DNA from: Chloroflexia bacterium
Lineage (GTDB): Bacteria; Chloroflexota; Chloroflexia; Thermomicrobiales; CADCWN01
Assembly: GCA_039810045.1 (NCBI GenBank)
Contig: JBDHWF010000003.1
Span: forward strand, 1,834-65,833
Direction of reading: 5' to 3'
DNA: 64,000 nt
Part shown: positions 20,981 to 35,255 of the stretch, in pieces
Position numbering within the stretch: the first letter of the stretch is position 1
Layout of the letters: the number at the start of each line of letters is the position of its first letter
Position numbers and translations under genes: made by a program
The notes under the pieces: generated by a model
Database searches by the model: none
Told to the model about the DNA's origin: nothing
Seen by the model: only the letters and a program-made list of their open reading frames with translations

Positions 20981-21955
20981 ATGCTCGATGCCGCAAACCG
21001 TAAGGGGACGAAGAACGGCGCAGTCGCAACCACATTAGATATTGCCACGCATACCACCCACGAAACACCTGATCTGATCGCTGTTGGCTGGCGACAAAGT
21101 GTTGCGGACTATATTGCGCTGACCAAGCCCAAGATTATCTCCTTGCTGCTGATTACCACGCTCGGCGCAATGATGATCGCAGGCGACGGCTTTCCATCTG
21201 TGTGGATCGTCTTGTGGACGTTACTGGGCGGCGCACTCGCCTCTGGTGGGGCTGGCGCAATCAACCACTTCATTGATCGTGACATTGACAAGAAAATGGG
21301 GCGCACCAAAGGTCGTCCGGTCGTCAATGGTCGCGTGCAACCGTGGCAGGCGCTCACCTTCGGGATCGCGCTAGAAGTCGCCTCGTTCACGCTCCTGACC
21401 CTGGCAGTCAATCTGCTCAGTGCCATTCTGGCGCTCGGTGGGTTCCTGTTCTATGTCGTGATCTACACCCTTTGGCTCAAGCGCACCACGCCGCACAATA
21501 TCGTGATTGGCGGGGCGGCTGGCGCATTTCCGCCCCTGGTTGGTTGGGCGGCCGCTACTGGTTCGCTCTCTCTCGGGGCATGGATTCTCTTTGCCATTAT
21601 CTTCTTCTGGACCCCACCCCATTTCTGGGCGCTGGCACTGCTGATTCGTGGCGACTATGAACGAGCGAACGTGCCAATGTTGCCAGTTGTGCGCGGGGTG
21701 GAGGAAACACGCAAGCAGATCCTGATTTACACCATCATCATGATCGCCACCACCCTACTCCTGGTAGCCGTTGGTACCAGTGGCTGGCTCTATCTGGTTC
21801 TCGCGCTTGGTTTGGGGGGCTGGTTCCTCTATGATGCCATTCTCCTCCTGCGTGAGCAGACCCAGCGCGCCGCCCGCCGCCTCTACCTGTACTCTTTACT
21901 CTACCTGGCACTGCTCTTTCTGGCGATGGTAATCGACCACGCCTTCATCGCCTAA
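20981..21955 (+). CDS. ctaB: Protoheme IX farnesyltransferase (heme O synthase)
   Basis: A UbiA-family protein with 'NHFIDRDIDKKMGRTKGRP' and 'FFWTPPHFWALA'. The ATG at 20981 has GAGGAG 9 nt upstream, and the ORF is open from GTG 20945. Confidence 0.88.
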   Translation: MLDAANRKGTKNGAVATTLDIATHTTHETPDLIAVGWRQSVADYIALTKPKIISLLLITTLGAMMIAGDGFPSVWIVLWTLLGGALASGGAGAINHFIDRDIDKKMGRTKGRPVVNGRVQPWQALTFGIALEVASFTLLTLAVNLLSAILALGGFLFYVVIYTLWLKRTTPHNIVIGGAAGAFPPLVGWAAATGSLSLGAWILFAIIFFWTPPHFWALALLIRGDYERANVPMLPVVRGVEETRKQILIYTIIMIATTLLLVAVGTSGWLYLVLALGLGGWFLYDAILLLREQTQRAARRLYLYSLLYLALLFLAMVIDHAFIA

Positions 21956-22060: not shown

Positions 22061-24349
22061 CTATGGTATCGGTGGTTCAATCGGTGGGATTGCATTGAAG
22101 TCGCTATAAGTACTCTCCATATAATGCCCCACGCTGAACATTCGCTGCCGCCGCACCAGATTATCATCGACCCCGATCCAGAACGTCATCCGGCTGCCAC
22201 TTGGCACATCAAGGAAACTAACCACCCAACACGGCGTACCAGCAATCGTTTCGCGCCCCAATAACGTCACTTCATTGGAGATACTGGCATTATCGAAGAT
22301 CGGCCAGCGATAGCCCGCAGGTTCCGGCCACACACTTTGCACCCAATTCCCACCCGCTGGGCGATCATACCGCTGCTTCCCGACCACGATTGTTTCGCTA
22401 CCAGCCTCTGAGCGCAGGTGCATGCGGTTTGGCGCGACCCACTGGTAATCCGTCGTAATGGGCGCACCGCTACCAGTGATCGTCTGATGTTCGCGCAAAC
22501 CAGTGAGTTGATTCATCGCCAGATCTGATTGTGCCAGTAACGAACGCGCACCACCCGTTGGAAGATCCAGGTTAAACACCGCGCGGTCAGTTCCTCCACC
22601 ACGCGGTGTAACCAACGCTTCGAGTTGCCAATGCCCCGGTTTACCAAGTTCCCCCAACCCCGTATAGCGACCATCCCGCGCTACCAATGGCACCTCTTGC
22701 GGAACCGCCCCATTTGTAGCGGTGAGCCGCAACGTCACAGCAGCATCAGTGAGGCTACCCCCAGCAGAATCTTGCAACGTCACATTCAGCACGGCTGGGC
22801 CAGTGGTCGTTGGTCCAATTGTCAGCGTTACCAGGGTTGGCCCCGCGTTCATTGCCAGCGTCACACTATCAGCAATAGTGGTGTTGGCAGGCGCACTGGC
22901 TGGCGCATCAGCGCTGACGACAGTACGAGCGGGTGGTAATGCCGTCAACAAGCCAACGACCAGCAATACCACCATCCCTATCGTCATTTCACCCCAGAGG
23001 GTCTGCCATAAACGCTGTATTGTCTGCGCCGTCGGCGCATTCGTCTCCCGCACTAGTCGTGGCAGAATCCAGAAGCGATTCATTGCGGCGAACCCCAGCA
23101 ACGGCACCAGGAGGAGGAGTTTCACCAGCAGCGTTCCACCATAGAGGCTTTGCCCCAACGCCAGTGGGCCATCAACGTGGACCCAGGTTTGGTAAAAGCC
23201 AGTCACGATAAGCAGTTGAATGGCAACAAGGGCCAGCGCCGAAAAACGCAAAATGATCCGCAGCAGCGTCTTGAACTGTGCTGTCACTGGTAATGCCCGA
23301 ATCATCCGCGGCAGAACCAGGGCGAGTATCAGCACCCCACCAAGCCAAGCTGACGAGGCCACAAGATGAACCCAATCGACCAGAATTGACAGCAGGATTG
23401 GGTCGGTCGTGGCCGCATGGCCGCTGATACTCGTTACGAGGGCATAGGCCAACCCCGCGATCAATAGCAATAACCAGGCGCGCTGCCCGCTGAGTGAGGC
23501 AATCGGCTCCTCGTCGGCAGCGCGTAGCTCCAACTCAGCACTGAGAATGGGCAAGGTCAGGGCTGGCGCAATCAGAAGGGCTAATCGACTCAGCCAGAGC
23601 GTGCCAAAGCGCCCGGTCAAGGCCCCAAGCAGATTCCCTGGCTGGAGAAACTCGCTGCCACCACCAAAGGCGCTGGCATAGGCGGCACTGATCAACAGGC
23701 AGAGCTGACCAAGGACAACAAGGCCAAATGCCAGCCAGATCCAGCGCACAATCGTTGGTTCAAAAAGGGTGAGGAAGTCATCATAACGCGACCGCTGCCG
23801 CGCTGGCGTGAACAGCAGCAGGCTGAGCCGGAAGGCCAGCGGCCCCAGCCAGAGACTCAGCCCCAGGAGAATTAATCCCCGGGCCAGCGCCTGGAGTAGC
23901 AGGGGTGGGGTCAAACCCGTTGGTTCAGTTTCGGCTGTGCCTAAGAGCAAATCTGCCGGAGCTACCCCCACCCCAAACCGAAACTCTCCAGTGACTGGAT
24001 GGGTATCTGCTGATACCAGCGCATAACGCACGGTATAGACTCCAGTTGAGAGTTCAGGCAGAGAAACCGCCACCGAGAGCGGATCATTGGGGGCAGCGTG
24101 GGCATCGCGCCGATCCACGCGCCGCCCGCCAGTGTCAGTTACGGCGATCTTATCGGCGCGAACCTCCACCCGCTCATTAAATGTCAGGCGCACCTCGCCA
24201 ACCGTTGCCGCCACCACAGTACCAGCCGCAGGTTGGGTCCGTTGCAAAAAGGCGTGGGCAGAAACAAGCGTTGGTGTCAACAGCACACCAGCGGCAAGCA
24301 CCAGGCCAAGCAGAAACCCCAGCACCCACTGTAAATGCCGAATATTCAA
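22061..24349 (-). CDS. CopC-CopD fusion copper transport/resistance protein with extra C-terminal extracytoplasmic domains (YcnJ-like)
   Basis: After a signal peptide comes 'HAFLQRTQPAAG...YALVSADTHPVTGEF' (CopC), then about 8 TM helices (CopD). A beta-rich 'GRYTGLGELGKPGHWQLEALV' module (YtkA/FixH-like) follows, plus about 170 further residues. Confidence 0.75.
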   Translation of the reverse strand: MNIRHLQWVLGFLLGLVLAAGVLLTPTLVSAHAFLQRTQPAAGTVVAATVGEVRLTFNERVEVRADKIAVTDTGGRRVDRRDAHAAPNDPLSVAVSLPELSTGVYTVRYALVSADTHPVTGEFRFGVGVAPADLLLGTAETEPTGLTPPLLLQALARGLILLGLSLWLGPLAFRLSLLLFTPARQRSRYDDFLTLFEPTIVRWIWLAFGLVVLGQLCLLISAAYASAFGGGSEFLQPGNLLGALTGRFGTLWLSRLALLIAPALTLPILSAELELRAADEEPIASLSGQRAWLLLLIAGLAYALVTSISGHAATTDPILLSILVDWVHLVASSAWLGGVLILALVLPRMIRALPVTAQFKTLLRIILRFSALALVAIQLLIVTGFYQTWVHVDGPLALGQSLYGGTLLVKLLLLVPLLGFAAMNRFWILPRLVRETNAPTAQTIQRLWQTLWGEMTIGMVVLLVVGLLTALPPARTVVSADAPASAPANTTIADSVTLAMNAGPTLVTLTIGPTTTGPAVLNVTLQDSAGGSLTDAAVTLRLTATNGAVPQEVPLVARDGRYTGLGELGKPGHWQLEALVTPRGGGTDRAVFNLDLPTGGARSLLAQSDLAMNQLTGLREHQTITGSGAPITTDYQWVAPNRMHLRSEAGSETIVVGKQRYDRPAGGNWVQSVWPEPAGYRWPIFDNASISNEVTLLGRETIAGTPCWVVSFLDVPSGSRMTFWIGVDDNLVRRQRMFSVGHYMESTYSDFNAIPPIEPPIP

Positions 24350-24506: not shown

Positions 24507-25019
24507 ATGACGACACGAACAACCGCGAATGCACAAGCAAAGAACACCATCCACTCGTCAGAGAATGGGGATCGCGTCATTACGACCAATCGTCAGGCGC
24601 GGTTTGAGTATACGATCCTGGAATCAATGGAAGCAGGGATCGCGCTGACTGGTACCGAGATTAAATCGGTGCGTGGTGGTCACGCCAATATCCGCGATAG
24701 TTATGCGCGCATCGAAGCTGGAGAACTCTGGCTGATCAATATGCACATTGCACCCTACGATCAGGCCGGTAGCTACTATCAACACGACCCGATTCGCCCC
24801 AGGAAACTGTTGGTACACCGCCGCGAAATCGCCCGCCTCAAAGCGGAACTCGGGCAAAAGGGACTGACCTTAGTCCCCCTGCGCCTCTATCTCAAACGTG
24901 GCCGTGCAAAAGTAGAAATTGGGCTGGCACGCGGGAAGAAGCTCTATGATAAGCGCGATGCGCTGGCCGAGCGTGACGCCAAACGTGATATTGAGCGCAG
25001 CCTCCGCAATCGCGAGTAG
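24507..25019 (+). CDS. smpB: SsrA-binding protein
   Basis: 'NRQARFEYTILESMEAGIALTGTEIKSVR' and 'LVPLRLYLKRGRAKVEIGLARGKK' are present. The gene lies directly upstream of the tmRNA gene. Confidence 0.93.
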   Translation: MTTRTTANAQAKNTIHSSENGDRVITTNRQARFEYTILESMEAGIALTGTEIKSVRGGHANIRDSYARIEAGELWLINMHIAPYDQAGSYYQHDPIRPRKLLVHRREIARLKAELGQKGLTLVPLRLYLKRGRAKVEIGLARGKKLYDKRDALAERDAKRDIERSLRNRE

Positions 25020-25081: not shown

Positions 25082-25431
25082 GGGGATGTCTGGTTTCGAC
25101 AGGGACGTAGGCGAGGGAATTGCAGGCCGAGGCGCCCGGGTTCCTCGTAAAAACGGGCAATGCCATAACTGGCAACACCGAATACGCTCTGGCTGCCTAG
25201 GTAGCCACGTCCGCGCAGTCCCCACCCCAACGGGATTGTAGTCGGGCGTCACAAAGTTGGGGTGCTGCATTGCCGACTGCGGGCTGAGCAATGCCTAAGA
25301 CCAGCCCACTAGCGCACTAGAGAGGCTGTCGAGAGTCGCTCGGTGAGCAAAAACTAAAATCTCGACTATGTCTGTAGGATATTCCCCGTTGAACTTTCTG
25401 GACGGGGGTTCGACTCCCCCCATCTCCACCA
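25082..25431 (+). ncRNA. ssrA: tmRNA (transfer-messenger RNA)
   Basis: The 5' GGGGAUG pairs with the 3' CAUCUCC, including the G3:U wobble, followed by A-CCA. The T-arm is GGGGGUUCGACUCCCCC. The internal tag ORF ends ...AAC ACC GAA UAC GCU CUG GCU GCC UAG (..NTEYALAA*, 25162/25171-25200); the resume codon is uncertain (GCC or GGC). Confidence 0.95.
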
Positions 25432-25456
25432 AGCAGCGACCCCAACCAGTATTGTG

Positions 25457-25493
25457 AGCAAAGCTGAAGGTAGCACCTGCCTTCAGCTTTGCT
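25457..25493 (+). terminator. Terminator-like hairpin after ssrA
   Basis: A perfect 14-bp stem (agcaaagctgaagg / ccttcagctttgct) with a 9-nt loop. Confidence 0.5.
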
Positions 25494-26014
25494 GATCGCT
25501 TGCCTGACCGCCGCCACTTTGCACTCTCCCCAGATAGTTTTGCAAAGAAAACGTCTCCTATTCTAGCCAAGAAACACCAAAAGTACTACAGACAATAGTC
25601 TTAATAATGGATACGATTGTCTAGAATGATCACGCCCTTTTGTATGACGCCCCTGGGTAACTAGAGGGGTACAGGGGTCGGCCCAAAGGTATTCAATATC
25701 TCGGCACAACCTGCTCAGCACTTCTGCATTGCGATTGCCTACCTCTGCTTGTTCCGTGAGAATTGTGCGCCGTAGCATGACACGGAACGCCGCTGCATCA
25801 ACTGATGCAGAACAGGAATATTCGCCTTGTCGATCACATCGCAGATCGACAAGAAAGGAGGGGGGAGCAGATAGATTCGATAGTCCTGAACCGAAATAGG
25901 AGTTTTGGGTCTTTGCATCATGGTCTGACGCCTTGTACAGTTCCTAGTAGGGTTAGCACAAAGCTGTGCATGAGTGACCAGCATCATGGTCGATCACAGA
26001 AGAAGGAGTATGCA

Positions 26015-26215
26015 ATGAACCTGACTGCGATTGAGATTGTTGTTCGGCGTATTTTCAGCGATGCTGAGTTCCGCGCACGAGCGCTGGCAAATCCAACAAC
26101 GGCGCTTGCTGAATATCAGCTTGCTGCTGCTGAACAGCAAGCATTGACGAAGCTGTGCCTACGCATGGCTGATGGGCAGAACGCGGTTGTCCCGAACTTT
26201 TACTGGTGGCTCTAG
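26015..26215 (+). CDS. 66-aa putative RiPP/pheromone precursor peptide (ComX-like: helical leader plus C-terminal ...NFYWWL)
   Basis: A strong SD, AAGGAG at 26003-26008, lies 6 nt before ATG 26015. The sequence is MNLTAIEIVVRRIFSDAEFRARALANPTTALAEYQLAAAEQQALTKLCLRMADGQNAVVPNFYWWL. The N-terminal 50 aa resemble helical leader peptides (DxxFRxxxxxxPxxALxEY). It lies immediately upstream of a prenyl-synthetase-fold gene. Confidence 0.6.
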   Translation: MNLTAIEIVVRRIFSDAEFRARALANPTTALAEYQLAAAEQQALTKLCLRMADGQNAVVPNFYWWL

Positions 26216-26290
26216 GTCGGGCGCGATCAACAGATACGGCGTGTAGCTACCTAGCAGGAAGCACCAGCGAACCTTGAGGAGTTAGGCGGC

Positions 26291-27190
26291 GTGCCCGATA
26301 CAGAACGGTTCGCTATTGTCAGGCAGCTACTCGAAGAGGCAGTGGAGCGCACGCCGCTCCCCGCCTCTTCTCAGCCGTTTCTCCGTATTCCCCTACAGCA
26401 GCCAGGAAAACTTCTCGGCGGTGCAGAACAACCACTTTGGCCAGCCACCGTCTTGGCCGTTTGTGCCGCAAGTGGTGCCGATCAGCGGCTCGGCAGTAAA
26501 GTTGCGGCGGCAGTCGAACTCTTTATGGCCAGTCTCGATATTCTCGATGAGCTTGAAGATGGTGATCGGTCACCGCTTGCGGAAACAGTTGGCCCCGCAC
26601 GTGCCCTCAATATTTCCACGATGCTTCTCTTTCTGGCCCAAAGCTTGCTTCAGAGTTTACACGAAGATGGTTTACCAGCAGAACGAGTTCTACAACTGAC
26701 CAAAACGCTTACTACGTTTGGCATCGAAGCAACTGTTGGACAAGATCGCGATTTACAAAGTGCCAATGCCGAAGCTCTTTCGTATGACGAAGCCCTGACG
26801 ATTGCCCAGATGAAAGCGGGCGCATTAGTCGCGTGTGCTTGTACGATCAGTGCCCTGCTTGCCACCGATGACCCATATCTGCTCAAACTCTATGGTGACT
26901 GGGGCAGACATTACGGCACCGCCGCGCAACTGGCGAATGATTTACATGACGCAACAAATGCCAACAAGAGTGATCTGGCCCAACAAAAAGGAACACTGCC
27001 ACTCCTCTACGAGCGCACGACGAATGACGGGGCTGTATCCCCGCCCGCCGTAGCAACAAGTGGCGCACTTCATTTTACCTGGGTAGTGCTAGAAATGGAA
27101 CGGCAACAGTGTGCCGAGCTTGCGACCATGCTGACAGCACACGGACAGGCGGCAAGGCATTTACAAACCTTACCTGGGGCAGTTGAGTGA
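26291..27190 (+). CDS. Polyprenyl-synthetase-fold protein with degenerate Asp-rich motifs (ComQ-like putative peptide prenyltransferase)
   Basis: 299 aa; GTG start with GAGGAG 9 nt upstream. The family landmarks 'GQDRDL', 'KAGAL' and 'KSDLAQQKGTLPLL' are present. However, the first Asp-rich motif is 'LDILDELEDGD' and the second is 'AQLANDLHD' (NDxxD) instead of DDxxD. Confidence 0.65.
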   Translation: MPDTERFAIVRQLLEEAVERTPLPASSQPFLRIPLQQPGKLLGGAEQPLWPATVLAVCAASGADQRLGSKVAAAVELFMASLDILDELEDGDRSPLAETVGPARALNISTMLLFLAQSLLQSLHEDGLPAERVLQLTKTLTTFGIEATVGQDRDLQSANAEALSYDEALTIAQMKAGALVACACTISALLATDDPYLLKLYGDWGRHYGTAAQLANDLHDATNANKSDLAQQKGTLPLLYERTTNDGAVSPPAVATSGALHFTWVVLEMERQQCAELATMLTAHGQAARHLQTLPGAVE

Positions 27191-30100
27191 TCACGACGAG
27201 CCAACCACCTCATCGATCAACACTCCACCCCGCCAGACCATTTCGGCTGGCATTATTCATCCTGATCCCAATCTTCATTGCCTGTCTCATTGTTGCCCAG
27301 CATGATGCAAAGCGTGCGCCTACTCTGGGGATAACGGTCACGCAAACCGAGCTAGGTGGCCCCTGGCTCGTCAGTAACGTGTCCTTTGGGAGCAGAGCCA
27401 ACTATCTGGGCATTGAGCCTGGGAATCAGATAGTACGCATTGACGGTAATGCGGTACAACGGGATCAGGCACCAGATCCTGTACTGATTCAGCAAGCGAC
27501 CCAACTGGTTATTACGAATGCCGATGGTTCAAAAACACGCACCTTCGATCTGGCTGGATTACAGTCAGGACCATTGAATCTAACCCCCTATCTGGTGATG
27601 AGCACCATCTTCTTCACTGTGGGGTTTATTACGCTATTGTTTGGTCAAGGGGCAGCACCGCGTGCGCTAGCCCTCCTCACCATGAGTGGGGCACTTGAAG
27701 CAGTCGCCATCCCCCTGAGCTTACGGGCAACAAACTGGGCGATTATTGCGAATGGGGTCTGTGTTCCCATCTTTATTGGTAGCTTCGCCTATCTCTTTCT
27801 TGTATTCCCGCGTCGCCGTCTGTTGCACGTCGGAAAGAAGCGCTTTCCACCAGAGTTAATCCTGCTGCCGATCATTCCCACCTTCATTACATATATGTTC
27901 TCTATCGCGACAAGTCATGCCGCAGTTATTATGGTTGGCCGAGTACTGGGCTACCCCTACTTCCTCGCTTGCTTTATCGGGGGGATTCTGGCCCTGATCC
28001 TCAGTTGGCGACAAGCACGCCCAGGGCGTGAAAAGACCCAACTCCGTACAGTAACGCTGGCAAGTATCGCCGCAATCACGCCATTTCTCTTGATCAACTT
28101 CTTCCCTCAGATCACCTTTGGCAATACCTTCCTCTCCGCCGACTACACGATCTTGCCTATGGCCTTAATTCCCCTCGCGTTCGGCTACGCCATCTTGCGT
28201 TATCAACTGATGAATATGCACCTCTATCTGCGGCGTGGGGTTGGCTATTCGATTCTTGGGGTTGGCATTACGGGAGTCTACACCTTAGGGCTGGCGATTG
28301 CCTCCATTACTATTCGTAACCAAACGGCCAGTAGTTTGCTCATCACGGCAATCATGATGACTATCGTCGTGCTGCTCGGCGACCATCTCCGTACAAAAAT
28401 CCAACACCATGTTGATCATCTCTTTGACCGTAAGGGGTATGACTATCGCCGCCAATTACTTGAGTTTAGTCAGCAGATGAATACGATCCTTGATCCTGAT
28501 GAACTTGCCGAATCAACCGTTGGCCTGATCGAACAGACCATGAGTTCATACTATGTGCGGCTGTATATCTACGACCGCGCAACCAGCACCTTCCACCTTT
28601 GGGCGCATGCAGGGACGCCCGTACCAAGCACCGAGCAAACACTGCCCCCTGAACACCCCACCAGTATGAAGATGCGCAACGCTGGCTGGGAAATTGTGCA
28701 ACATCTGGAAGTACAAGCTGATCAAGATGTTCTACTTGTACCACTGACCAATAAAGGCCAACCAGTCGCTATGCTTGTCCTGGGCGCAAAGCGATCAGAA
28801 CTGCCATATTCAAGCGAAGACCTTGTCTTGCTCAGTACTGTCGCCAGCCAACTGGCGATCTCGACGGAAAACGCCCAACTGTATGGGCGAATGCGCGATC
28901 TCTACCTCTCTGGGATTCGCACACTCGCAGCAACGGTTGATGCCAAAGATTCCTATACCCACGGTCATTCCGAGCGGGTCGCGGGGTATGCCCGCGCCCT
29001 GGCGATCGCGCTGAATTTGCCACAAATCGAAGTCGAAACCATTGAATTAGCGGGGTTATTGCACGATATTGGCAAAATTGGTATTCCTGATGCGGTACTC
29101 CAAAAACCTGGAAAGCTCGCCCCAGATGAACGGGCATTGATCGAACAGCACACCGAAATTGGGGCCCGGATCCTCGCTGATAATCCTGCGCTCCAGGCCC
29201 TTGTTCCGCTTGTACGGCATCATCACGAACGCTGGGACGGCAAAGGATATCCTGATCAGCTTCGTGGTGAAGCGATTCCCCTGGGGGCAGCAATTATCTG
29301 CGTGGCCGACACATTCGACACAATGACGACCAACCGCCCATATCGTCAGGCACCAGGATATGAACAAGCCTACCTGGAAATCCTGCGCCAGCGTGGGCAG
29401 CAATTTTCTCCTCGGGTGGTCGAGGCATTTATTCGGGTCGACTTTTCTCAGGGCAACTGCTCGACAGCAAACCAAAAAACCACTGCGCTACAGTCGCGGA
29501 TGGCCCTGGCGGAACAAGCTACTGCTACCAACAACCGCGCAATGCGCATTGTCTATCAAATTGCCCAACTGCTGAGTACCGCCAAAGAGTTAGATGTGTT
29601 CTTACAACGGGTGATCGAACTCTTACAAAATGAACTTGCGACCAATACTGTTGACTTCTTCATTATCGATGAAGAAACACAAACGCTCTACAATCGCCCC
29701 AGTACGCAAAGTAGCTTAGGCCAAATACAGCTTCCACTCGGCCAAGGTCTGGTAGGCTGGGTTGCTCAGCACCAGACGGCTGTCTGTATTGATGATATTC
29801 GCACTGATGATCGCGCAGTGATTGCGAACGGTTGGGATGGCCGAGCAGAACTCGCTGTGCCTCTGATTAGCAGTGGGAAGACGATTGGCGTACTGAATGT
29901 TGAGAGTACGCGCGTGGCCGCATTCACCGATGAGGACACCAAACTCCTGACCATCATTGCGGGACAACTGGCCCAGGTTATTGAAGTGACACAATTACAT
30001 CTGGACGCCCGTAAGGCCGCAGGCCTCGATAGCCTCACCAAGATTGCCAATCATCGGCAATTTTACAACCGTCTGGAAATGGCAATCGCGGCAACCCAAC

Positions 30101-30564
30101 AGCACCACAGTGCCCTGGCCCTCGCCATTATCGATGTTGATAACCTGAAATATATCAACGATACCTTTGGTCATTTAGCAGGTGATTCTGTTCTCTATAC
30201 GCTGGCTCAACACCTTGAAGCCCACGCCCAGGCTGAGGAATTTGTCGCGCGCTACGGTGGTGATGAGTTTGCAATCATCTTCCCCAACACCACTGATACC
30301 CAAGCAAAAGCACGAATCGAGGCACTCAGGGTCTACCTGCAAGAAGCGGCAACGCTCACAATCGACAATCAACAATTACCCCTCCCCGAACTCTCGGTAG
30401 GCGTTGCTGCTTTTGATCCAGAAACGATGACCCTGAGTGCGCTGATCAACGCTGCCGACAAAAAGATGTATGAACAGAAACGCGCCCACCGCAAGCACCG
30501 ACAACGCCCAACTCCGCCAGCAAGCCCCTTGGCAATTACTACGCCAATCGCCTATGATCGATAA
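27187..30564 (+). CDS. Polytopic membrane receptor: TM, PDZ-like loop, multi-TM, GAF, HD-GYP, GAF, GGDEF (c-di-GMP turnover)
   Basis: 1125 aa with a GTGA overlap with the upstream gene. aa 20-40 form a TM helix. aa ~60-125 'GIEPGNQIVRIDGNAV' are PDZ-like. aa ~130-400 carry about 9 TM helices ending in 'AILRYQLMNMHLYLRR'. The HD-GYP domain has 'HGHSERV', 'LLHDIGK' and 'HHERWDGKGYP' (aa ~575-750). The GGDEF domain has 'RYGGDEFAIIF' (aa ~945-1100). GAF-like modules flank the HD-GYP domain. Confidence 0.85.
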   Translation: MITTSQPPHRSTLHPARPFRLALFILIPIFIACLIVAQHDAKRAPTLGITVTQTELGGPWLVSNVSFGSRANYLGIEPGNQIVRIDGNAVQRDQAPDPVLIQQATQLVITNADGSKTRTFDLAGLQSGPLNLTPYLVMSTIFFTVGFITLLFGQGAAPRALALLTMSGALEAVAIPLSLRATNWAIIANGVCVPIFIGSFAYLFLVFPRRRLLHVGKKRFPPELILLPIIPTFITYMFSIATSHAAVIMVGRVLGYPYFLACFIGGILALILSWRQARPGREKTQLRTVTLASIAAITPFLLINFFPQITFGNTFLSADYTILPMALIPLAFGYAILRYQLMNMHLYLRRGVGYSILGVGITGVYTLGLAIASITIRNQTASSLLITAIMMTIVVLLGDHLRTKIQHHVDHLFDRKGYDYRRQLLEFSQQMNTILDPDELAESTVGLIEQTMSSYYVRLYIYDRATSTFHLWAHAGTPVPSTEQTLPPEHPTSMKMRNAGWEIVQHLEVQADQDVLLVPLTNKGQPVAMLVLGAKRSELPYSSEDLVLLSTVASQLAISTENAQLYGRMRDLYLSGIRTLAATVDAKDSYTHGHSERVAGYARALAIALNLPQIEVETIELAGLLHDIGKIGIPDAVLQKPGKLAPDERALIEQHTEIGARILADNPALQALVPLVRHHHERWDGKGYPDQLRGEAIPLGAAIICVADTFDTMTTNRPYRQAPGYEQAYLEILRQRGQQFSPRVVEAFIRVDFSQGNCSTANQKTTALQSRMALAEQATATNNRAMRIVYQIAQLLSTAKELDVFLQRVIELLQNELATNTVDFFIIDEETQTLYNRPSTQSSLGQIQLPLGQGLVGWVAQHQTAVCIDDIRTDDRAVIANGWDGRAELAVPLISSGKTIGVLNVESTRVAAFTDEDTKLLTIIAGQLAQVIEVTQLHLDARKAAGLDSLTKIANHRQFYNRLEMAIAATQQHHSALALAIIDVDNLKYINDTFGHLAGDSVLYTLAQHLEAHAQAEEFVARYGGDEFAIIFPNTTDTQAKARIEALRVYLQEAATLTIDNQQLPLPELSVGVAAFDPETMTLSALINAADKKMYEQKRAHRKHRQRPTPPASPLAITTPIAYDR

Positions 30565-30629
30565 GTGCGCGGTGGGGTCTACCCAGCGTTCATTCGATCG
30601 GATCAGCACACTGTATTGAGGAGTGAAGC

Positions 30630-31220
30630 GTGCCCCGTAAACCCAAAGCAGCCCAACCAGCCCAGGCCGCCCCACTGGCCGAACCGATCGTCGCCGAGCC
30701 AGCCCCAGAGCGCGGGATGTCGCACATTGACGAAACATTGGTCAACATGGTTGCAGCGCAAGCATCGGCAAGCGCCATGCAAGCCACTACCGAAGATACG
30801 ACTGAAGAACCGCTCGATCCGTTTGCCACATTTTGGACCGAGCTTGATCTCCACTGTCGCGACTGCCAGATTATTCACTATGTACCAATCTGCCTCTTTC
30901 TCAATGCTGAAGAATCGCCCGCCCTGGTACAGCGGATTATTTCTGGTCATTTCAACAACAAACGCTGCCCAGTCTGCCACAAAATCGAGTTTGTCGAACA
31001 CCCCTATAGCTTCTACGATCCCGCCCGAAAGCTCATCGTGCAAGTACGCCCAGAATGGGAATGGCACGCAGGCGGCGGGGACGAATGGTATGCCGCCCGC
31101 CTCGAAGATCTTTTCGATAAGTGGGCTGAATACGATGTCCAGATTGAAGTGGTCTTTGGTCAGCAACAACTGATTGATCGCTTCCTCCAGGCAGTCTCAC
31201 CACCACCTGCTCGTCGCTGA
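30630..31220 (+). CDS. CpXC-domain protein (uncharacterised zinc-ribbon-like)
   Basis: GTG start with GAGGAG 6 nt upstream. It has an acidic/Ala-rich N-terminus, then 'CRDCQ...' and 'CPVCH' Cys pairs about 50 aa apart, as in CpXC proteins. The nearly co-extensive antisense ORF 30603..31169 has no motifs. Confidence 0.55.
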   Translation: MPRKPKAAQPAQAAPLAEPIVAEPAPERGMSHIDETLVNMVAAQASASAMQATTEDTTEEPLDPFATFWTELDLHCRDCQIIHYVPICLFLNAEESPALVQRIISGHFNNKRCPVCHKIEFVEHPYSFYDPARKLIVQVRPEWEWHAGGGDEWYAARLEDLFDKWAEYDVQIEVVFGQQQLIDRFLQAVSPPPARR

Positions 31221-31248
31221 GATCAATGCACATTCCTGCAAATACCAG

Positions 31249-31280
31249 CAGGCCACCAACGTAGCGCGGTTGGTGGCCTG
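31249..31280 (+). terminator. Terminator-like hairpin after the CpXC gene
   Basis: A perfect 12-bp stem (caggccaccaac / gttggtggcctg) with an 8-nt loop, followed by cttag. Confidence 0.5.
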
Positions 31281-31569
31281 CTTAGACGCGGTCAGGCAAT
31301 TGGTATGGAGCTATCGTCAGGTCCCTTTGCAGAATGAATACACTTGCGCCAGCAAGATCGCCTCAGTACACTTGCGCCATCACGATACACCCCTTGGCAT
31401 ATATGCTGCAGCAGATCGCAAGGCCAGAGATTCCTGGCCTCCGAAACACTGAACCTGGCAATGACGTTTGATACTATGACTGTGTAGTGGCATCGTTCAA
31501 CGATCTGGACGTTCGACCAGGCGGCACTCATTCTCTATTAGGGGTAGTACATAGGGGATAACAAGCACT

Positions 31570-33318
31570 ATGAGTGTCCCATTTCGCCTTCGCGTCAGTA
31601 GCGGACCAAATGCCGGAGAGAGCTTCATCCTCACCGACAATGGGGCAACCATTGGGCGGCAAGATGGCAACACTATCGTTCTCGACGATAGTCGCTTATC
31701 GCGCCAACACGCCCGCATTGATCTCGGCCCTGGTGGGCTCACTTTAACCGATCTTGGCTCCGCTAATGGTACCCTGGTCAATGGGCAGCGAGTCAGTGGC
31801 ACCCGAATCTTGCAACGCGGCGACCAGATTCAGCTTGGGGAGACGACGCTGATCCTTGAAGGAGGGGCACCGGCGAACAATCGTCTCGCCACGGTGGTAC
31901 CAAAGCCCGAAAATATCGTTACCACCCCTATCTCGGCGAATGCTGCTCGCTTAGTACAGCAAGTGGGTGGGCAAATCTACCCATTGAACCAGCCCGAAAT
32001 CGTTATTGGGCGTGAGGTAGGCGCGGAAATCGCCCTTGATGATTCCCAGATATCGCGTCGCCACGCCCGCCTGACGATAACGGGGAATACCGTCACCATC
32101 GCTGATCTTGGCTCAGCAAACGGTACGTTCGTCAACGGCAGGAAGATCGCTGGCCCAACTTCATTACAAGAAGGCGATCGGATCCGTATTGGTACCCACG
32201 ATTTTCGGATCGAGGGTCTGGCGCCCCCTGCCACGGCACCGCAACTAGCAGATGCGAACGATGCCACAGTCGCAGGGATCGCGCCTTTCCCTGCCGCTAC
32301 ACCGCTCAGGCCACTCCCGCCAGCAGGCACTGCCCCCTTACCGCCGCTAGGCAACGCGCCGGGGCCACCAGCCTTTGGGGCTAACCAACCGTCATTAGCG
32401 CCTGGACAGCCCTGGAATCCTCCAGCATCGCCATACGGCTCGGTGGGGATGCCCCCACCATCACCCGCAAAACGCCGTTCAACCTCACCGATCCTGATCG
32501 GCGGTTGTGTAGTTCTCTTCCTGTTACTCTGTATCGGCGGCGGCATTGGCGGGGCAGTCGTCATCCGTAACCGTAACAACGACGCCACCCCAACCGTGGT
32601 GACGAATAGCACTGCTGTCCCAGGCGGCGGTGGCAGTAACCCCGCCCCATCACCACCAACCCCTGGCGGTGCGCTACCGCCCACCACTCAGCCAACGGCG
32701 ACGCTAGTTGCCCTCTTGCCGCCAACCACGCCCACAGCACCGGCAACGGCAACGTCAGCGCCGCTTCCCACATTGGCGGCACCGCCACCAACAACTGCGC
32801 CAACTCGCCGCCCGACCAATCAGGTCGCGCCAACGGTGGCGGCTACCCGTCCACCAGCGAACGGCAACACCACGATTACAGTTGATGCAGTGGGGTTGAC
32901 GTTCATCTTACCTACTGGTTGGACCCAGGAACGGGATGAGGCGGGCCAGGCCACCTTTCTGGCCCCAGACCAACGCGCGCAAATTACCGTACGGTGGAGC
33001 CAACAGGCCCCTGCGGGGCTGACCGCCCAACGGTTGATTCAGGATGAATTACAGCGAACTGCTAATGAAGATAGTAGCTTCGTCCCCAGCAACACCCAAA
33101 TCGGCGCGCTCACCTTTGGCGGGCACCCCGGCTATGGTTCGGAACCATATACCTACAATCTGCAAAGCGGTACGCGCCTGACTGAAGCTGACCGTGCTGT
33201 CGTACTCAGCGGGCGCGCCCAATACTTCTTTGGATTTACTGCCATTGCCACAGATTTTGATCGTTATCGATCGATCTTCGATAGTATCATCAATACTGTC
33301 GTCATTACTGGCCCTTAA
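31570..33318 (+). CDS. Double-FHA-domain membrane protein with extracytoplasmic C-terminal domain
   Basis: It has two FHA modules ('IGRQDGNTIVLDDSRLSRQHARI...GSANGTLVNG' and 'IGREVGAEIALDDSQISRRHARL...GSANGTFVNG'). A Pro-rich linker, the TM 'ILIGGCVVLFLLLCIGGGIGGAVVI', a PT-rich spacer and a ~150-aa globular C-terminus follow. Confidence 0.85.
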   Translation: MSVPFRLRVSSGPNAGESFILTDNGATIGRQDGNTIVLDDSRLSRQHARIDLGPGGLTLTDLGSANGTLVNGQRVSGTRILQRGDQIQLGETTLILEGGAPANNRLATVVPKPENIVTTPISANAARLVQQVGGQIYPLNQPEIVIGREVGAEIALDDSQISRRHARLTITGNTVTIADLGSANGTFVNGRKIAGPTSLQEGDRIRIGTHDFRIEGLAPPATAPQLADANDATVAGIAPFPAATPLRPLPPAGTAPLPPLGNAPGPPAFGANQPSLAPGQPWNPPASPYGSVGMPPPSPAKRRSTSPILIGGCVVLFLLLCIGGGIGGAVVIRNRNNDATPTVVTNSTAVPGGGGSNPAPSPPTPGGALPPTTQPTATLVALLPPTTPTAPATATSAPLPTLAAPPPTTAPTRRPTNQVAPTVAATRPPANGNTTITVDAVGLTFILPTGWTQERDEAGQATFLAPDQRAQITVRWSQQAPAGLTAQRLIQDELQRTANEDSSFVPSNTQIGALTFGGHPGYGSEPYTYNLQSGTRLTEADRAVVLSGRAQYFFGFTAIATDFDRYRSIFDSIINTVVITGP

Positions 33319-33335
33319 TAGATCAGGATTATTTT

Positions 33336-35255
33336 ATGAGTGATAGTACTACCACAGCAGATTCATTTGATAATCGTAACCAGATTGGCGCAGGGCAGGA
33401 AGAAACTGCGCACGCCCGCGGCGGCCTCACGGCAACAGCCTTTGGGCTCAGTGATATTGGCTGCCAGCGCTCGGTCAATCAGGATACCCTCGGTAATCGG
33501 CTCAGTCAGTTTCCCACCCAACTCCATGATCGGGGATTACTCTATGCCATTGCTGATGGAATGGGCGGCCATGCCCACGGCGAGATCGCCAGTGCCCTCG
33601 CGATCGACGAACTGTTCACCCGCTTCTATCAGATCGATCCCAGTCTCCCGCCACAAACAGCCCTGACCCAGGTGATGCAAGAACTGAATGCTGCGGTGCA
33701 TCAGGCGGGGCGGGATGCGGGCGGCGGATCGATGGGTACCACGCTGACGATAGTGCTCTTACGCGATAACATCCTCTATGTTGGCAACATTGGCGACAGT
33801 CGCACCTATCTAATTCGGGGCGGGAAGATCAAGCAACTGAGCCAGGATCATTCGCTGATCGGTGAGCAAATACGCAGCGGTACCCTGACCGAAGCCGACG
33901 CCCGTACCAGTGCAATTCGTAATGTGATTACCCGGGCGGTTGGCTATCGAGAAACTGTCGAACCAGAAACGTTTGCGTTTACCGTCCACCCCGGCGACAT
34001 CCTCTTACTCTGCTCGGATGGCTTGCATGGCCTGGTCGAAAATGAGGAACTGGCGCAAATCCTGAGTACACAAACGCTATCAGACGCCACAACCAACTTG
34101 ATCGCCCTGGCGCGTGAGCGTGGCGGGCCAGATAATATTACCGCACTCGTAGTGCGTGTCGATCAGCTTGGTGCAGCAGGCACGGCCAACGCCACACAGC
34201 AGATTACTGCCAGTGATAGTGACGCTGCTGATGACGCCACCAAGCCAATGCCAATGATCGCGCCAGATCGTACCGAAGAGATCCTCCTCCCAGCAACCGA
34301 AAATGAAGAGCAAGCAGCAACAACACTCCCAATGATCACCACACCAAAAGCTGCCCCCAATGCTCCAAGGCCAACAGTAGCCCCAGCGTCAATGCCCGCA
34401 CCAGCCCCAACCGTCGCCGATCTCGCCCGTCCAGCAGCCCGCCCGCCGCTCTGGCTGTTTATCGTGATCCCATTACTGTTAATCGGGCTGATTGCGGCGG
34501 GAGTGTTGCTCTTTACGCGAAACCTAAACACGACACCAACGCCTCCAGCAGTTGTTACGGTAGTGGCTACAGCAACGGTAGCACCAGCACCCTCGGCCAC
34601 GGCTGCTGTCGCCACTGCACCAGTTGTCGCTGCTGGCAGTATTGCGCCGACCGCACAACCAACTGCCACCTTACCCCCCAAAACACCACCAGCCAGCGCC
34701 CCAGCACAATCTAGCGGCGGCAGTAACCCCGCCGCCCCGATAGTACCGCGTCCCAATACTCCCTCAGCGATAGCAGCCGGGAATAGTGGGGCAACGCAAC
34801 GGATCAAGGTAAGCGGCACCGTGCGCTTTGCCGAAACACTAGCGATTCCCGCAGGATTCCCAAATGATTGGGCAGTATTGCTCTATGCACAACGTGACTT
34901 TCAGCAGCAACAGCAGGCGGCCCCAATCAAAGCACAATCCGCACTAACAGTCCTCCCCTTTCGCGAAGAGTACGGGTTTGTCCTTGATCTTGAGCTTGCC
35001 ACTGGGAATCAACAAGGAGAGCTATTCACCATTCAGCTACAGGATCTGGAAAATGACCAAATCGCCGTACTTGATCCCGGTGAGATTCGCATCGATCGCA
35101 CTGGTCGCCCAATTACTGTGCGCGTAACCAGTATTACTGAGCAACCAGAACCTCGGCCATCAGGCAACGTATCGCCGCGCACGCCAGCGATCTTCCTCAC
35201 AGACGACAAGATTCAGCGCGCTGTAGCAGTATTCCTACAGCAAGTCAGGCGCTAA
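33336..35255 (+). CDS. PP2C-family Ser/Thr phosphatase, membrane anchored
   Basis: 'YAIADGMGGHAHGEIAS', 'LLLCSDGLHG' and 'GGPDNITALVV' are present. The TM 'LWLFIVIPLLLIGLIAAGVLLF' and an extracytoplasmic A/P/T-rich region plus domain follow. Confidence 0.88.
   Translation: MSDSTTTADSFDNRNQIGAGQEETAHARGGLTATAFGLSDIGCQRSVNQDTLGNRLSQFPTQLHDRGLLYAIADGMGGHAHGEIASALAIDELFTRFYQIDPSLPPQTALTQVMQELNAAVHQAGRDAGGGSMGTTLTIVLLRDNILYVGNIGDSRTYLIRGGKIKQLSQDHSLIGEQIRSGTLTEADARTSAIRNVITRAVGYRETVEPETFAFTVHPGDILLLCSDGLHGLVENEELAQILSTQTLSDATTNLIALARERGGPDNITALVVRVDQLGAAGTANATQQITASDSDAADDATKPMPMIAPDRTEEILLPATENEEQAATTLPMITTPKAAPNAPRPTVAPASMPAPAPTVADLARPAARPPLWLFIVIPLLLIGLIAAGVLLFTRNLNTTPTPPAVVTVVATATVAPAPSATAAVATAPVVAAGSIAPTAQPTATLPPKTPPASAPAQSSGGSNPAAPIVPRPNTPSAIAAGNSGATQRIKVSGTVRFAETLAIPAGFPNDWAVLLYAQRDFQQQQQAAPIKAQSALTVLPFREEYGFVLDLELATGNQQGELFTIQLQDLENDQIAVLDPGEIRIDRTGRPITVRVTSITEQPEPRPSGNVSPRTPAIFLTDDKIQRAVAVFLQQVRR

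Follow-up and report, generated by a model that had tools for sequence, protein, structure and literature searches.

What does a membrane protein that carries domains for both making and degrading c-di-GMP respond to, and what does it do with the signal? This question is raised by a gene at 27187..30564 (+) of a 64,000-nucleotide stretch of Chloroflexia DNA (the window, to which all positions refer). The gene starts with GTG, and in its 1125-aa product a ComP-type sensor module is fused to GAF, HD-GYP, GAF, and GGDEF domains. The preliminary description, whose coordinates for this ORF proved exact, labeled the product a receptor for c-di-GMP. We reject that label; the protein is instead a signal receptor with a c-di-GMP-metabolizing output. 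Our preferred reading, to which we assign a probability of roughly two in three, is that it is the receptor gene of a ComQXP-type three-gene peptide-pheromone cassette whose output was swapped from a phosphorelay to direct c-di-GMP turnover. If so, cell density would set c-di-GMP turnover directly, with no response regulator in between. For this cassette, we infer rather than show secretion, binding of the ligand, the two enzyme activities, and the direction in which the output switches.

Results

We characterized the membrane part of the receptor. Hydropathy and the positive-inside rule placed the N-terminus inside and the C-terminal part in the cytoplasm, with 10 transmembrane (TM) helices, bearing out the proposed layout of TM1, a loop, and about nine further helices. 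TM1 (residues 19-37; 27241..27297, +; hydropathy peak 2.74) follows an Arg-rich, inside N-terminus and corresponds to helix 16-41 of an AF2 model of moderate confidence (pLDDT 68). The loop, put earlier at ~95 aa, is 92 aa long (residues 38-129). TM2-TM10 (residues 135-153, 161-179, 190-208, 222-242, 250-271, 288-306, 315-337, 356-374, and 380-398) lie in a bundle (residues 130-398; 27574..28380, +) that includes a conserved cytoplasmic segment, AILRYQLMNMHLYLRR (residues 335-350; 28189..28236, +). This segment had been taken as the end of the membrane region, but it is a cytoplasmic stretch after TM8 and is followed by TM9 and TM10.

The bundle had no transporter match and no meaningful solved structural neighbor, and this sensor-type module is also found on kinases, PP2C phosphatases, and HD-GYP and GGDEF proteins. 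A transporter-family reading of the N-terminal domain is ruled out, as the module is a sensor input common to varied signaling proteins. The receptor is not a member of the 7TM/HisKA_7TM group, with no Pfam match to PF16927 at E<=1. In hhalign, the N-terminal 400 aa matched authentic Bacillus ComP sensor domains (97%, E 1.2e-10, 320 columns) with a score of 83.3, compared to maxima of 20.3 for column-shuffled and 44.9 for block-shuffled controls and 18.0 for the reversed control. Aligned separately, the PDZ and TM parts also matched ComP (TM region alone, E 3.5e-6). The N-terminus was thus rightly called ComP-like and, on these profile comparisons, the sensor module is homologous to the Bacillus ComP sensor.

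The loop (27298..27573, +) had been described as PDZ-like. The receptor's own Pfam PDZ matches were sub-threshold (E 0.03-0.17), yet the assignment to an extracytoplasmic PDZ domain is firm, because a 12-sequence loop profile matched the PDZ domains of DegP, RseP, and DegQ (E 1.3e-10 to 1e-8), 40 of 57 relatives had significant PDZ_6 calls, five orthologues carried PF17820, and the AF2 model of the loop superposed on the PDZ domains of CtpA, DegQ, HtrA, and syntenin (~82 columns, rmsd 2.4-3.3 A). Residues 46-49 form a carboxylate-binding-loop motif, T/S-L-G-[ILV], that is conserved.

Two genes that the preliminary description missed, one ComX-like and one ComQ-like, lie directly upstream and probably point to the receptor's ligand. 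The order is precursor peptide, prenyltransferase, and receptor, with good ribosome-binding sites. The precursor gene (26015..26215, +; GAAGGAG, 7 nt ahead of ATG) encodes a 66-aa StheX/ComX-like RiPP precursor ending in FYWWL. Its leader (residues 1-54; 26015..26176, +), with final residues ..ADG, precedes a core, QNAVVPNFYWWL (26177..26212, +), that is hypervariable compared to the leader (23% versus 64% conserved). Trp65, second from the C-terminus (26207..26209, +), is homologous to the farnesylated Trp of StheX, and Trp occupied position -2 in 15/16 further precursors. The peptide matched Pfam Frankia_peptide (E 9e-6) and, below cut-off, an NCBIfam NHLP-clan leader model (E 5.8e-9). The leader is of this NHLP/Frankia_peptide type and did not resemble the ComX Pfam family; the peptide may be analogous rather than homologous to ComX.

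The next gene (26291..27190, +; 299 aa) encodes a ComQ/StheQ-family peptide tryptophan prenyltransferase (Pfam polyprenyl_synt, E 1.6e-15; hhalign to authentic Bacillus ComQ, 98.5%, E 2e-15). Its invariant residues comprise a first Asp-rich motif (D86/D90/D92; 26546..26566, +), K175, Q213, and a pseudo-second motif (N216-D217..D220; 26936..26950, +). They match StheQ D85, D89, D91, K174, Q212, N215, D216, and D219, such that every residue named functional in StheQ is present. The second-best PDB match was the indole prenyltransferase Ord1 (9v4g).

Since members of the NHLP RiPP clan are mostly natural-product precursors, the prenylated peptide could be mainly an antimicrobial or surfactant RiPP, with the receptor sensing it for autoinduction or immunity, in the way that NisK senses lantibiotics, rather than for quorum sensing. 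Membrane activity is known for prenylated peptides (review PMC13290415), and one relative (L112) has a precursor with two cores, which is typical of natural-product RiPPs. We consider this unlikely, as neither this locus nor the orthologous loci contain immunity, transporter, or further tailoring genes in the cassette, and the minimal trio or quartet architecture fits ComQXP(A). The sensing mechanism and the c-di-GMP output would be unchanged under either view.

We determined how tightly the genes are linked. The prenyltransferase stop overlaps the receptor start by 4 nt. The trio was kept in 6/6 orthologous loci examined, even with differing flanks, and precursor homologues lay upstream of every orthologous receptor. 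Among 40 independent metagenomic ComQ-like loci, the next gene encoded the sensor module in 37 (20 kinase, 5 HD-GYP+GGDEF, 11 truncated, and 1 frameshifted). Conversely, a Q-like gene was directly upstream for all four sensor-module proteins sampled. The module usually sits on a ComP-type kinase accompanied by a ComA-like regulator: kinase-type versions consist of PDZ, HisKA_3, and HATPase_c, followed by a REC+GerE regulator, making them equivalents of ComP and ComA. HD-GYP+GGDEF outputs occur in the receptor's clade.

Divergence was graded. Within the receptor, the PDZ domain diverged fastest (32% mean pairwise identity), compared to 23% for the peptide core and 85% for HD-GYP. On sequence grounds, this receptor/peptide gradient appears pherotype-like. 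ComX and the ComP N-terminus show the same pattern (Dogsa 2014).

These data bear on whether the PDZ/TM part of a generic dual-domain c-di-GMP enzyme senses something other than the neighboring peptide, such as unfolded or cleaved C-termini of envelope proteins (as the DegS and RseP PDZ domains do), membrane state, or isoprenoid pools, with gene linkage reflecting only co-regulation. The PDZ domains of DegS, DegP, and RseP, which the loop matches most closely in sequence, do sense protein C-termini, and linkage was checked in only a few members of a large sensor family (4,211 representatives at E<=1e-10). Nonetheless, we give this explanation little weight: in either direction the linkage is almost obligate; it includes start/stop overlaps and survives change of all other flanking genes; divergence is fastest in the sensing parts and the peptide core together; and the module is homologous to ComP, the genetically established ComX receptor.

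In many tandem c-di-GMP proteins, one domain serves merely as a regulator. The cytoplasmic part of the receptor begins with GAF domain 1 (residues 436-562; 28492..28872, +; Pfam GAF_3), and the TM-to-GAF junction is also present in kinase-type relatives. The HD-GYP domain (residues 581-744; 28927..29418, +; Pfam HD_5, the HD-GYP model, E 6.8e-38) is followed by GAF domain 2 (residues 800-933; 29584..29985, +; Pfam GAF_2, whole-protein E 1.1e-26 across both GAF stretches) and the GGDEF domain (residues 947-1103; 30025..30495, +; Pfam E 4.2e-40, profile positions 3-160 of 161). A GAF-like module before each catalytic domain had been predicted correctly. Incomplete catalytic residues would have refuted the claim that HD-GYP and GGDEF are intact; we looked for this and found them complete. 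The HD-GYP motifs (HGH, HDIGK, QHT, HHERWDGKGYP, and ADTFD) and the GGDEF motifs (DVD..K..N..D and RYGGDEF, with GGDEF at residues 1024-1028) are kept in essentially all of ~25 orthologues.

The binuclear metal-ligand set of HD-GYP is complete, and Tyr590 replaces the third-metal Glu (E185 of PmGH). Under the Glu/Tyr rule (Galperin and Chou, 2021), the domain is of the binuclear class, and its product is thus probably pGpG. The best PDB match was the c-di-GMP phosphodiesterase PmGH (4mcw, E 1.2e-40), followed by the cGAMP-specific V-cGAP3 (5z7c, E 2.3e-37). V-cGAP3 also shares the N-terminal motif VDAK..YT.GHSERVA, with Tyr at the E185 position, raising the question of whether HD-GYP acts on 3'3'-cGAMP or another cyclic dinucleotide and the two catalytic domains serve different messengers. 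Substrate specificity is not readable from sequence. As the best match is to a c-di-GMP enzyme and the domain is fused to an intact GGDEF domain, which favors one common messenger, we regard this as very unlikely.

The position of the RxxD I-site reads QAEE (residues 1015-1018; 30229..30240, +), as first described. Based on this alignment the site is absent, because QAEE sits exactly opposite RKSD, RESD, and RSSD of the reference cyclases compared (DgcR, TpbB, and others).

Switching between cyclase and phosphodiesterase is assumed from motif integrity alone, and both activities are inferred. It remains possible, though we doubt it, that the prenylated peptide is sensed but that the real output comes from just one catalytic domain, with no true make/degrade toggle. 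HD-GYP could be regulated while GGDEF is a constitutive source or GTP-sensing regulator, or the converse. Many GGDEF-EAL tandems employ one domain for regulation. HD-GYP, the most conserved receptor domain, is conserved far above GGDEF (85% versus 60%); in one locus (L109) sensor-GAF-HD-GYP and GAF-GGDEF are split between two genes; and HD-GYP is the only one of the two catalytic domains in some relatives (P0076). However, drift would be expected of an inactive regulatory domain, and the GGDEF substrate and metal residues are all intact in the ~25 orthologues, including clades with reversed domain order.

Discussion

A model for the peptide-pheromone cassette begins with prenylation of the 66-aa precursor on its penultimate Trp, a step demonstrated with the Sphaerobacter homologues and only inferred in this cassette. 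The NHLP-type leader would be cut off near the ..ADG|Q junction, and a lipopeptide of roughly 12 residues would exit the cell, build up with cell density, and bind the outside face of the receptor. There, PDZ would hold its free C-terminus, with prenyl-Trp at the canonical P-2 position, while the lipid may dock on the TM bundle. The signal would pass from TM8 through the conserved cytoplasmic segment and TM9-10 to GAF1, a path whose equivalent in kinase-type relatives would drive a ComP-like HisKA_3 kinase. The predicted output is an altered balance between the HD-GYP phosphodiesterase and a GGDEF cyclase without an I-site. By analogy to RpfR, RpfC/RpfG, and ScrC, our guess is that ligand binding favors the phosphodiesterase.

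The receptor resembles ComP in its N-in/C-in topology, 10 TM helices, PDZ-fold first extracytoplasmic loop, and cytoplasmic output from near residue 400. Published modeling of ComP likewise gives 10 TM helices, with the PDZ loop joining TM1 to TM2, and its PDZ-ComX contact is a modeling proposal only (PMC9620489). Both receptor genes adjoin genes for a ComQ-family prenyltransferase and for a short precursor that has a Trp near its C-terminus, both proteins diverge fast in the sensing part with a conserved cytoplasmic part, and neither cassette contains a dedicated leader protease or exporter gene. In contrast to the HisKA_3-HATPase_c of ComP, the output here is GAF, HD-GYP, GAF, and GGDEF, and there is no ComA-type regulator. 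The genes run X-Q-P instead of Q-X-P-A, the leader is of NHLP type and not of the ComX family, the Trp lies at -2 instead of about -3, and the host is from Chloroflexota rather than Firmicutes. With the Q proteins and ComQ sharing only about 19-25% identity, the cassette is only distantly related to the Bacillus system.

The closest characterized pair is StheQ/StheX of Sphaerobacter thermophilus, orthologues of the cassette's enzyme and peptide with all named catalytic residues kept. StheX and the cassette peptides have 66-69 aa and Trp at -2 and -3. StheQ farnesylates the StheX Trp second from the C-terminus; the biological role of the product is stated to be unknown, and a receptor is never mentioned (2026 bioRxiv preprint 10.64898/2026.08.29.745113). 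What our analysis adds to that preprint is the receptor gene adjoining a StheQ/StheX-type pair. The preprint places stheX downstream of stheQ, whereas the peptide gene was upstream in all loci here. The trio also occurs in a Sphaerobacter MAG locus (L003), with a 1109-aa receptor ORF that begins on the base after the stheQ-like stop.

Other systems couple density signals to c-di-GMP. Vibrio parahaemolyticus ScrC (ScrABC), a membrane GGDEF-EAL protein, changes from cyclase to phosphodiesterase as a self-made signal builds up; it requires a separate periplasmic binding protein, and the signal is a small molecule. In Xanthomonas RpfC/RpfG, a density signal acts on an HD-GYP phosphodiesterase, but RpfG is a separate response regulator that needs phosphorylation by a kinase. 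Only two one-component quorum-signal-to-c-di-GMP receptors have direct evidence: RpfR and an AI-2-binding dCACHE cyclase (2022 review PMC8846402). Like them, our receptor is predicted to bind an autoinducer and couple it straight to c-di-GMP turnover. RpfR, the BDSF receptor (PAS-GGDEF-EAL), and the dCACHE cyclase sense a fatty acid and AI-2 through a cytoplasmic PAS and a periplasmic dCACHE domain, respectively, while the ligand predicted here is a prenylated peptide of ribosomal origin that a PDZ and 10-TM module would sense, and the phosphodiesterase is HD-GYP rather than the EAL of RpfR.

The GAF-HD-GYP unit resembles PmGH, and the output order HD-GYP, GAF, GGDEF is already catalogued in MASE9-HD-GYP-GAF-GGDEF proteins (Galperin and Chou, 2021). 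The receptor's sensor had no MASE match in Pfam; MASE9 has eight TM helices, short periplasmic loops, and no PDZ, compared to 10 TM helices and a 92-aa PDZ here. Unlike the MASE9 proteins, the receptor is genetically tied to a peptide-prenylation pair.

Architecture of the receptor

The receptor ORF lies exactly where the preliminary description had placed it, at 27187..30564 (+), starting with GTG and encoding 1125 aa. Hydropathy and the positive-inside rule put the Arg-rich N terminus inside, followed by TM1 (residues 19-37), an outside loop of 92 aa (38-129), and nine further TM helices, the last of which ends at residue 398. Loops 209-219, 272-287, and 338-355 are strongly basic, and all three are on the cytoplasmic side. 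In this topology, 'AILRYQLMNMHLYLRR', previously taken as the end of the membrane region, is instead the cytoplasmic TM8-TM9 segment. Pfam detects two GAF domains, GAF_3 at residues 436-562 and GAF_2 at residues 800-933. Named orthologues come from Chloroflexota, Thermomicrobiales, and Sphaerobacter.

The outside loop, initially called PDZ-like, is a PDZ domain. With the receptor alone, PDZ matches were sub-threshold in Pfam (E 0.03-0.17); the assignment is secure from a loop profile, from relatives, from Pfam calls in orthologues, and from model superposition. A profile of 12 loop sequences matched the PDZ domains of DegP, RseP, DegQ, and NHERF in the PDB (best DegP, E 1.3e-10), and its top matches were PDZ proteins without exception. 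PDZ_6 was significant in 40 of 57 relatives, and PF17820 was present in several orthologues. Using Foldseek, the loop of an AlphaFold receptor model (pLDDT 68) superposed on the PDZ domains of CtpA, DegQ, HtrA, and syntenin at 2.4-3.3 A over ~82 columns. The carboxylate-binding loop (x-Phi-G-Phi) reads T/S-L-G-[ILV] in the receptor family and is kept in most orthologues.

The N-terminal module had been guessed to be a ComP-like sensor. To obtain authentic comQ-comX-comP loci, we turned to Bacillus genomes and a degenerate form of a primer printed in a recent preprint (10.64898/2026.08.29.745113). We then compared a profile of the receptor module (8 orthologues) with three Bacillus ComP N-termini. 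Supporting the guess, the two aligned over 320 collinear columns that span TM1, the PDZ domain, and the helices up to TM9 (hhalign 97%, E 1.2e-10). The score of this alignment was 83.3, while controls reached at most 20.3 (column-shuffled), 18.0 (reversed), and at most 44.9 (shuffled in 22-column blocks). TM1 plus PDZ and the TM helices alone also matched ComP separately, with E values of 4.5e-7 and 3.5e-6, respectively.

Two other family assignments were considered and rejected. For HisKA_7TM (PF16927)/7TMR, neither the receptor (Pfam, E<=1) nor authentic ComP gave a match, and the model was found only on distant relatives (P0005 and P0034-37). For PrsK (TIGR02916), a weak match was confined to the junction between TM8 and GAF and reflects that this junction is shared, not family membership.

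A word-indexed protein search with the N-terminal module returned only 5 matches, as hydrophobic words saturated the index, and an exhaustive profile search was needed. This search recovered 19,121 representatives of the sensor-module family at E<=1e-3 and 4,211 at E<=1e-10. In a Pfam census of 57 relatives, we found HATPase_c in 37, GAF in 31, HD-GYP in 11, SpoIIE in 7, GGDEF in 5, and EAL in 1. An N-terminal domain from a transporter family would have refuted the sensor assignment. Since the module is common to kinases, phosphatases, and c-di-GMP proteins, this alternative failed, and the mix of outputs indicates that the sensor is a shared input module.

Both c-di-GMP domains are intact

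The HD-GYP domain (Pfam HD_5, residues 581-744, E 6.8e-38) has PmGH (4mcw, E 1.2e-40) and V-cGAP3 as its best solved relatives. Alignment to PmGH, V-cGAP3, and PA4781 revealed the complete set of metal ligands (H..HD..H..HH..D) and the GYP motif, and these motifs are invariant or nearly so among about 25 orthologues. Thus, the domain is intact, as had been proposed. In the alignment with PmGH, Tyr590 of the receptor takes the place of the third-metal Glu (E185 of PmGH), and all orthologues also have Tyr. Domains with Tyr in place of this Glu are binuclear, and their reaction ends with pGpG, while Glu-type domains such as PmGH are trinuclear and hydrolyze onward to GMP (Galperin & Chou, 10.1101/2021.11.05.467447).

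The GGDEF domain (residues 947-1103, Pfam E 4.2e-40) matches its model end to end and reads IIDVDNLKYINDTFGHLAGD...ARYGGDEF. In alignments with solved cyclases and with orthologues, D-x-D...K..N...D and R-x-GGDEF are kept. The D, K, N, D, and R residues, whose metal- and substrate-binding roles we take to be those assigned in PleD, are therefore all present, and this domain is also intact. The suggestion that the inhibitory I-site (RxxD) is absent held up, as QAEE aligns precisely with RKSD, RESD, and RSSD of solved cyclases; canonical product inhibition is thus absent. Among orthologues, RxxD occurs at the I-site only in three deeper-branching proteins (P0024, P0025, and P0031), while RxxE is seen in several others. 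No other part of the receptor is as conserved as HD-GYP, at a mean pairwise identity of 85%; GGDEF reaches 60%.

The receptor gene follows genes for a precursor peptide and a ComQ-like enzyme

The preliminary description overlooked the context 5′ of the receptor. A gene with a strong RBS at 26015..26215 encodes a 66-aa precursor peptide ending in ...NFYWWL. The precursor matches the Frankia_peptide RiPP family in Pfam and NHLP-clan leader models in NCBIfam; no match to the ComX family (PF05952) was found, as Frankia_peptide was the only Pfam match and NCBIfam gave NHLP-clan leaders. The precursor is nevertheless ComX-like in format, with a length in the 52-73 aa range, a Trp close to its end, and a C terminus that varies. 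In orthologous peptides, a leader of ~54 aa (64% identity), with GG, DG, or NG at its end, precedes a hypervariable core of ~12 aa (23% identity), and Trp is at position -2 in all peptides of orthologous loci. The predicted C-terminal core of the window peptide, ~12 residues, is QNAVVPNFYWWL or close to it.

Between the precursor and receptor genes, a polyprenyl-synthase-like gene (26291..27190) encodes a 299-aa enzyme, and its TGA overlaps the receptor GTG (GTGA). The enzyme has a first Asp-rich motif, LDILDELEDGD, and a pseudo-second motif, QLANDLHD, which is Asn-initial (NDxxx) in an IPPS fold; canonical synthases have DD where the enzyme has ND, as seen in an alignment with 3nf2. Comparison with authentic Bacillus ComQ gave hhalign 98.5%, E 2e-15, and 25% identity over 166 columns. 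Because all IPPS enzymes are related, the motif test is more specific than this homology. The enzyme and ComQ have in common D-x-x-D-[DE]-x-E-D-x-D and Q-x-x-N-D. The second-best solved relative of the enzyme is the indole prenyltransferase Ord1 (9v4g).

StheQ of Sphaerobacter thermophilus is a ComQ-family enzyme described in an August 2026 preprint (10.64898/2026.08.29.745113). Its named residues are D85, D89, and D91 in the first Asp-rich motif (FARM), K174, Q212, and N215, D216, and D219 in the pseudo-second motif (pseudo-SARM) (10.64898/2026.08.29.745113). With an offset of one, these correspond to invariant columns of our orthologue alignment (D86, D90, D92, K175, Q213, N216, D217, and D220). 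Farnesylation of Trp(-2) was demonstrated for StheQ (10.64898/2026.08.29.745113). Only this Sphaerobacter homologue has such proof, and prenylation of the window peptide is inferred. The role of its peptide, StheX, "remains unknown" according to the authors, and the preprint contains neither "receptor" nor "histidine kinase" and no mention of GGDEF or diguanylate (10.64898/2026.08.29.745113).

We retrieved six orthologous loci, and the precursor-enzyme-receptor trio was present in 6/6, including a Sphaerobacter MAG (L003), where the full receptor ORF starts on the base right after the enzyme stop, and a locus with other flanking genes (L006). A promoter and terminator scan of 25400..31300 gave counts at or below shuffled expectation, and RNA folding was insignificant for the intergenic regions between peptide and enzyme genes (z -1.1) and after the receptor (z -2.0). 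With no support from promoter, terminator, or folding signals, we call the operon from synteny, the RBSs, and the overlap of enzyme and receptor genes.

No leader peptidase or exporter (C39-ABC) was found in the window. A subtilase (35285..37564) and an FHA-ABC transporter fusion (38624..41128) lie 5-8 kb downstream in a Ser/Thr-signaling cluster. We did not count them as cassette components, since other genes lie downstream of the receptor in L003 and L006.

Genomic surroundings

Directly upstream of the cassette are smpB (24507..25019) and tmRNA (25082..25431, tag GNTEYALAA); ~580 nt of non-coding DNA separates these genes from the cassette. In comparison loci L001, L004, L005, and L006, smpB is again the upstream neighbor, whereas L003, from Sphaerobacter, does not have it there. 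As tmRNA genes are frequent integration sites of mobile elements, the cassette could be an island acquisition. In an Rfam search of the whole window, tmRNA was the only match and no c-di-GMP riboswitch was found.

Further upstream, 22061..24349 (-) encodes a 762-aa CopC-CopD fusion of the copper resistance type with a FixH-like C-terminal region; a CopC/CopD gene is also at the upstream edge of L004. A UbiA-family prenyltransferase gene (20945..21955) lies ~4 kb upstream of the cassette, and L001 also has an upstream UbiA gene. The window gene is probably related to menaquinone or other quinones and not part of the cassette, with VitK2_biosynth at 45431..46264. In the region downstream of the receptor (30630..45431), a CpXC zinc-ribbon protein (30630..31220) precedes the Ser/Thr-signaling cluster, which also encodes a double-FHA protein, a PP2C phosphatase, an FHA protein, an STK-TPR kinase, and LytR_CpsA_Psr. 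L001 and L004 likewise have CpXC, double-FHA, and PP2C genes after the receptor.

ComQ-like enzymes and the sensor module are linked in other bacteria

We collected 50 ComQ/StheQ-like loci from metagenomes, 40 of which had at least 300 nt downstream. The sensor module was in the next gene in 37/40. The output was a kinase in 20 of these, HD-GYP plus GGDEF in 5, cut by the contig end in 11, and frameshifted in 1. Conversely, all four sensor-module proteins that we chose from the exhaustive search had a Q-like gene directly upstream. Upstream peptides were recognized in 16 ComQ-like loci, with Trp at -2 in 15.

Kinase versions consist of PDZ, HisKA_3, and HATPase_c, which is the kinase class of authentic ComP in Pfam, and are followed by a REC+GerE regulator, giving complete ComQXPA-like sets, with contig GC as high as 67%. 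Seven loci (L074, L080, L083, L087, L103, L107, and L110) have the whole set, from the peptide and the ComQ-like enzyme to the ComP-like kinase and its REC+GerE regulator, with the first four contigs at 65-67% GC and one complete set in MAG GCA_016190715.1. The published census found ComQXPA only in Firmicutes (PMC4008528). ComQXPA-like systems appear to be widespread outside low-GC Firmicutes, beyond that census. Our survey points to a wide distribution of ComQXP(A)-like cassettes among environmental bacteria that have high GC and are not Firmicutes.

In a rough NJ tree of sensor modules, the main clade with c-di-GMP output, including the window receptor, formed a single group within the kinase-output sensors. 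In two receptors linked to ComQ-like genes (L067:1945-4881 and L079:1504-4998), the order is reversed to GAF, GGDEF, HD-GYP, and these branch apart from the main clade. More than one output swap may have occurred, although the tree lacks support values and is only a hint.

Other arrangements were also seen. At L109:434-3660, two abutting genes encode sensor-GAF-HD-GYP (720 aa) and GAF-GGDEF (354 aa); with contig coverage of 1.2x, either a genuine split or a frameshift may explain this. At L112:2219-2530, a 103-aa precursor has a duplicated core (GPMGTWFAPVPFS, twice) with no Trp near its C terminus. It is followed by a ComQ-like gene and by a hybrid kinase (PAS-HisKA-HATPase-REC) with the same sensor module.

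A model for the cassette

Having established anatomy, conservation, synteny, and ComP and ComQ homology, we infer a mechanism in which the leader would be removed and the lipopeptide exported. By inference, the lipopeptide may then bind the PDZ/TM sensor. Binding could change how strongly the predicted phosphodiesterase (HD-GYP) acts relative to the predicted cyclase (GGDEF without an I-site). That ligand binding would favor degradation is a guess, by analogy with RpfR, RpfC/RpfG, and ScrC. PDZ domains recognize a free C terminus, with position -2 a key determinant, which fits a ligand in which nothing is conserved but a modified Trp at -2. Divergence is fastest in the PDZ loop and the peptide core, and the same pattern is reported for ComX and the ComP N terminus (PMC4008528).

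A reading that accommodates these data, to which we assign slightly less than even odds (roughly 0.45), is that the receptor is the first of the peptide-pheromone type to convert cell density directly into a c-di-GMP signal. The free C terminus of a Trp-prenylated StheX-family RiPP would bind the ComP-type PDZ/10-TM sensor and toggle the HD-GYP/GGDEF pair between degrading and making c-di-GMP; ComQXP-type cassettes would extend well beyond Firmicutes, with outputs swapped between kinases and c-di-GMP enzymes more than once.

If true, ribosomal lipopeptide pheromones would be among the very few quorum signals that c-di-GMP enzymes sense directly. To our knowledge, recognition of prenylated peptides by ComP-type sensors has never been resolved. 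The conserved Trp at -2 and the PDZ domain suggest a specific binding mode, open to mutation tests, and the enzyme output (GTP to c-di-GMP to pGpG) would be far easier to assay in vitro than a phosphorelay. Until now this system consisted of an enzyme and a peptide, both characterized only in August 2026; the receptor supplies the third component, and a concrete, testable function for a peptide whose role the preprint authors called unknown. In a 2022 census, one-component quorum receptors with c-di-GMP output responded to BDSF (RpfR) and AI-2 (one cyclase) only, and PDZ and peptide pheromones were both unmentioned (PMC8846402). In full-text searches, no paper connected HD-GYP or GGDEF with ComX, StheX, or a ComP-type sensor.

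Comparison with known systems

The dual output is not new in itself, since it is known behind other N-termini. HD-GYP-GAF-GGDEF has been catalogued behind MASE9, a sensor with 8 TM segments and short periplasmic loops that lies N-terminal to HD-GYP(-GAF-GGDEF) (Galperin & Chou 2021). The receptor has 10 TM helices, a 92-aa PDZ loop, and no Pfam MASE match; this comparison does not rest on a direct sequence alignment with MASE9. Fusions of HD-GYP/GGDEF to HisKA_7TM or AAA/TPR N-termini also exist. Proteins P0039-P0054, ~1570-aa AAA/NB-ARC-TPR proteins ending in HD-GYP and GGDEF with named members from Gemmatimonadaceae, are another large sensor fused to this dual output.

Bacillus ComP is a parallel on the sensor side. 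BaComP has 10 TM helices and an 85-aa loop at 27-111 (PMC9620489), and the receptor has the same plan: N-in/C-in, about 10 TM helices, and a first extracytoplasmic loop of large size. As in ComQXPA, its gene adjoins comQ-like and comX-like genes. However, the receptor lacks HisKA_3 and HATPase_c in Pfam, and its downstream neighbor encodes the CpXC protein and not a ComA-type (REC + LuxR HTH) regulator; its kinase-type relatives do have HisKA_3 and HATPase_c with such a regulator. Without a kinase or ComA, the receptor is a ComP-type sensor but not a ComP orthologue, and without a PF05952 match, the peptide is outside the ComX Pfam family. The trio is most aptly classed as a pheromone cassette of the ComQXP type whose output is c-di-GMP.
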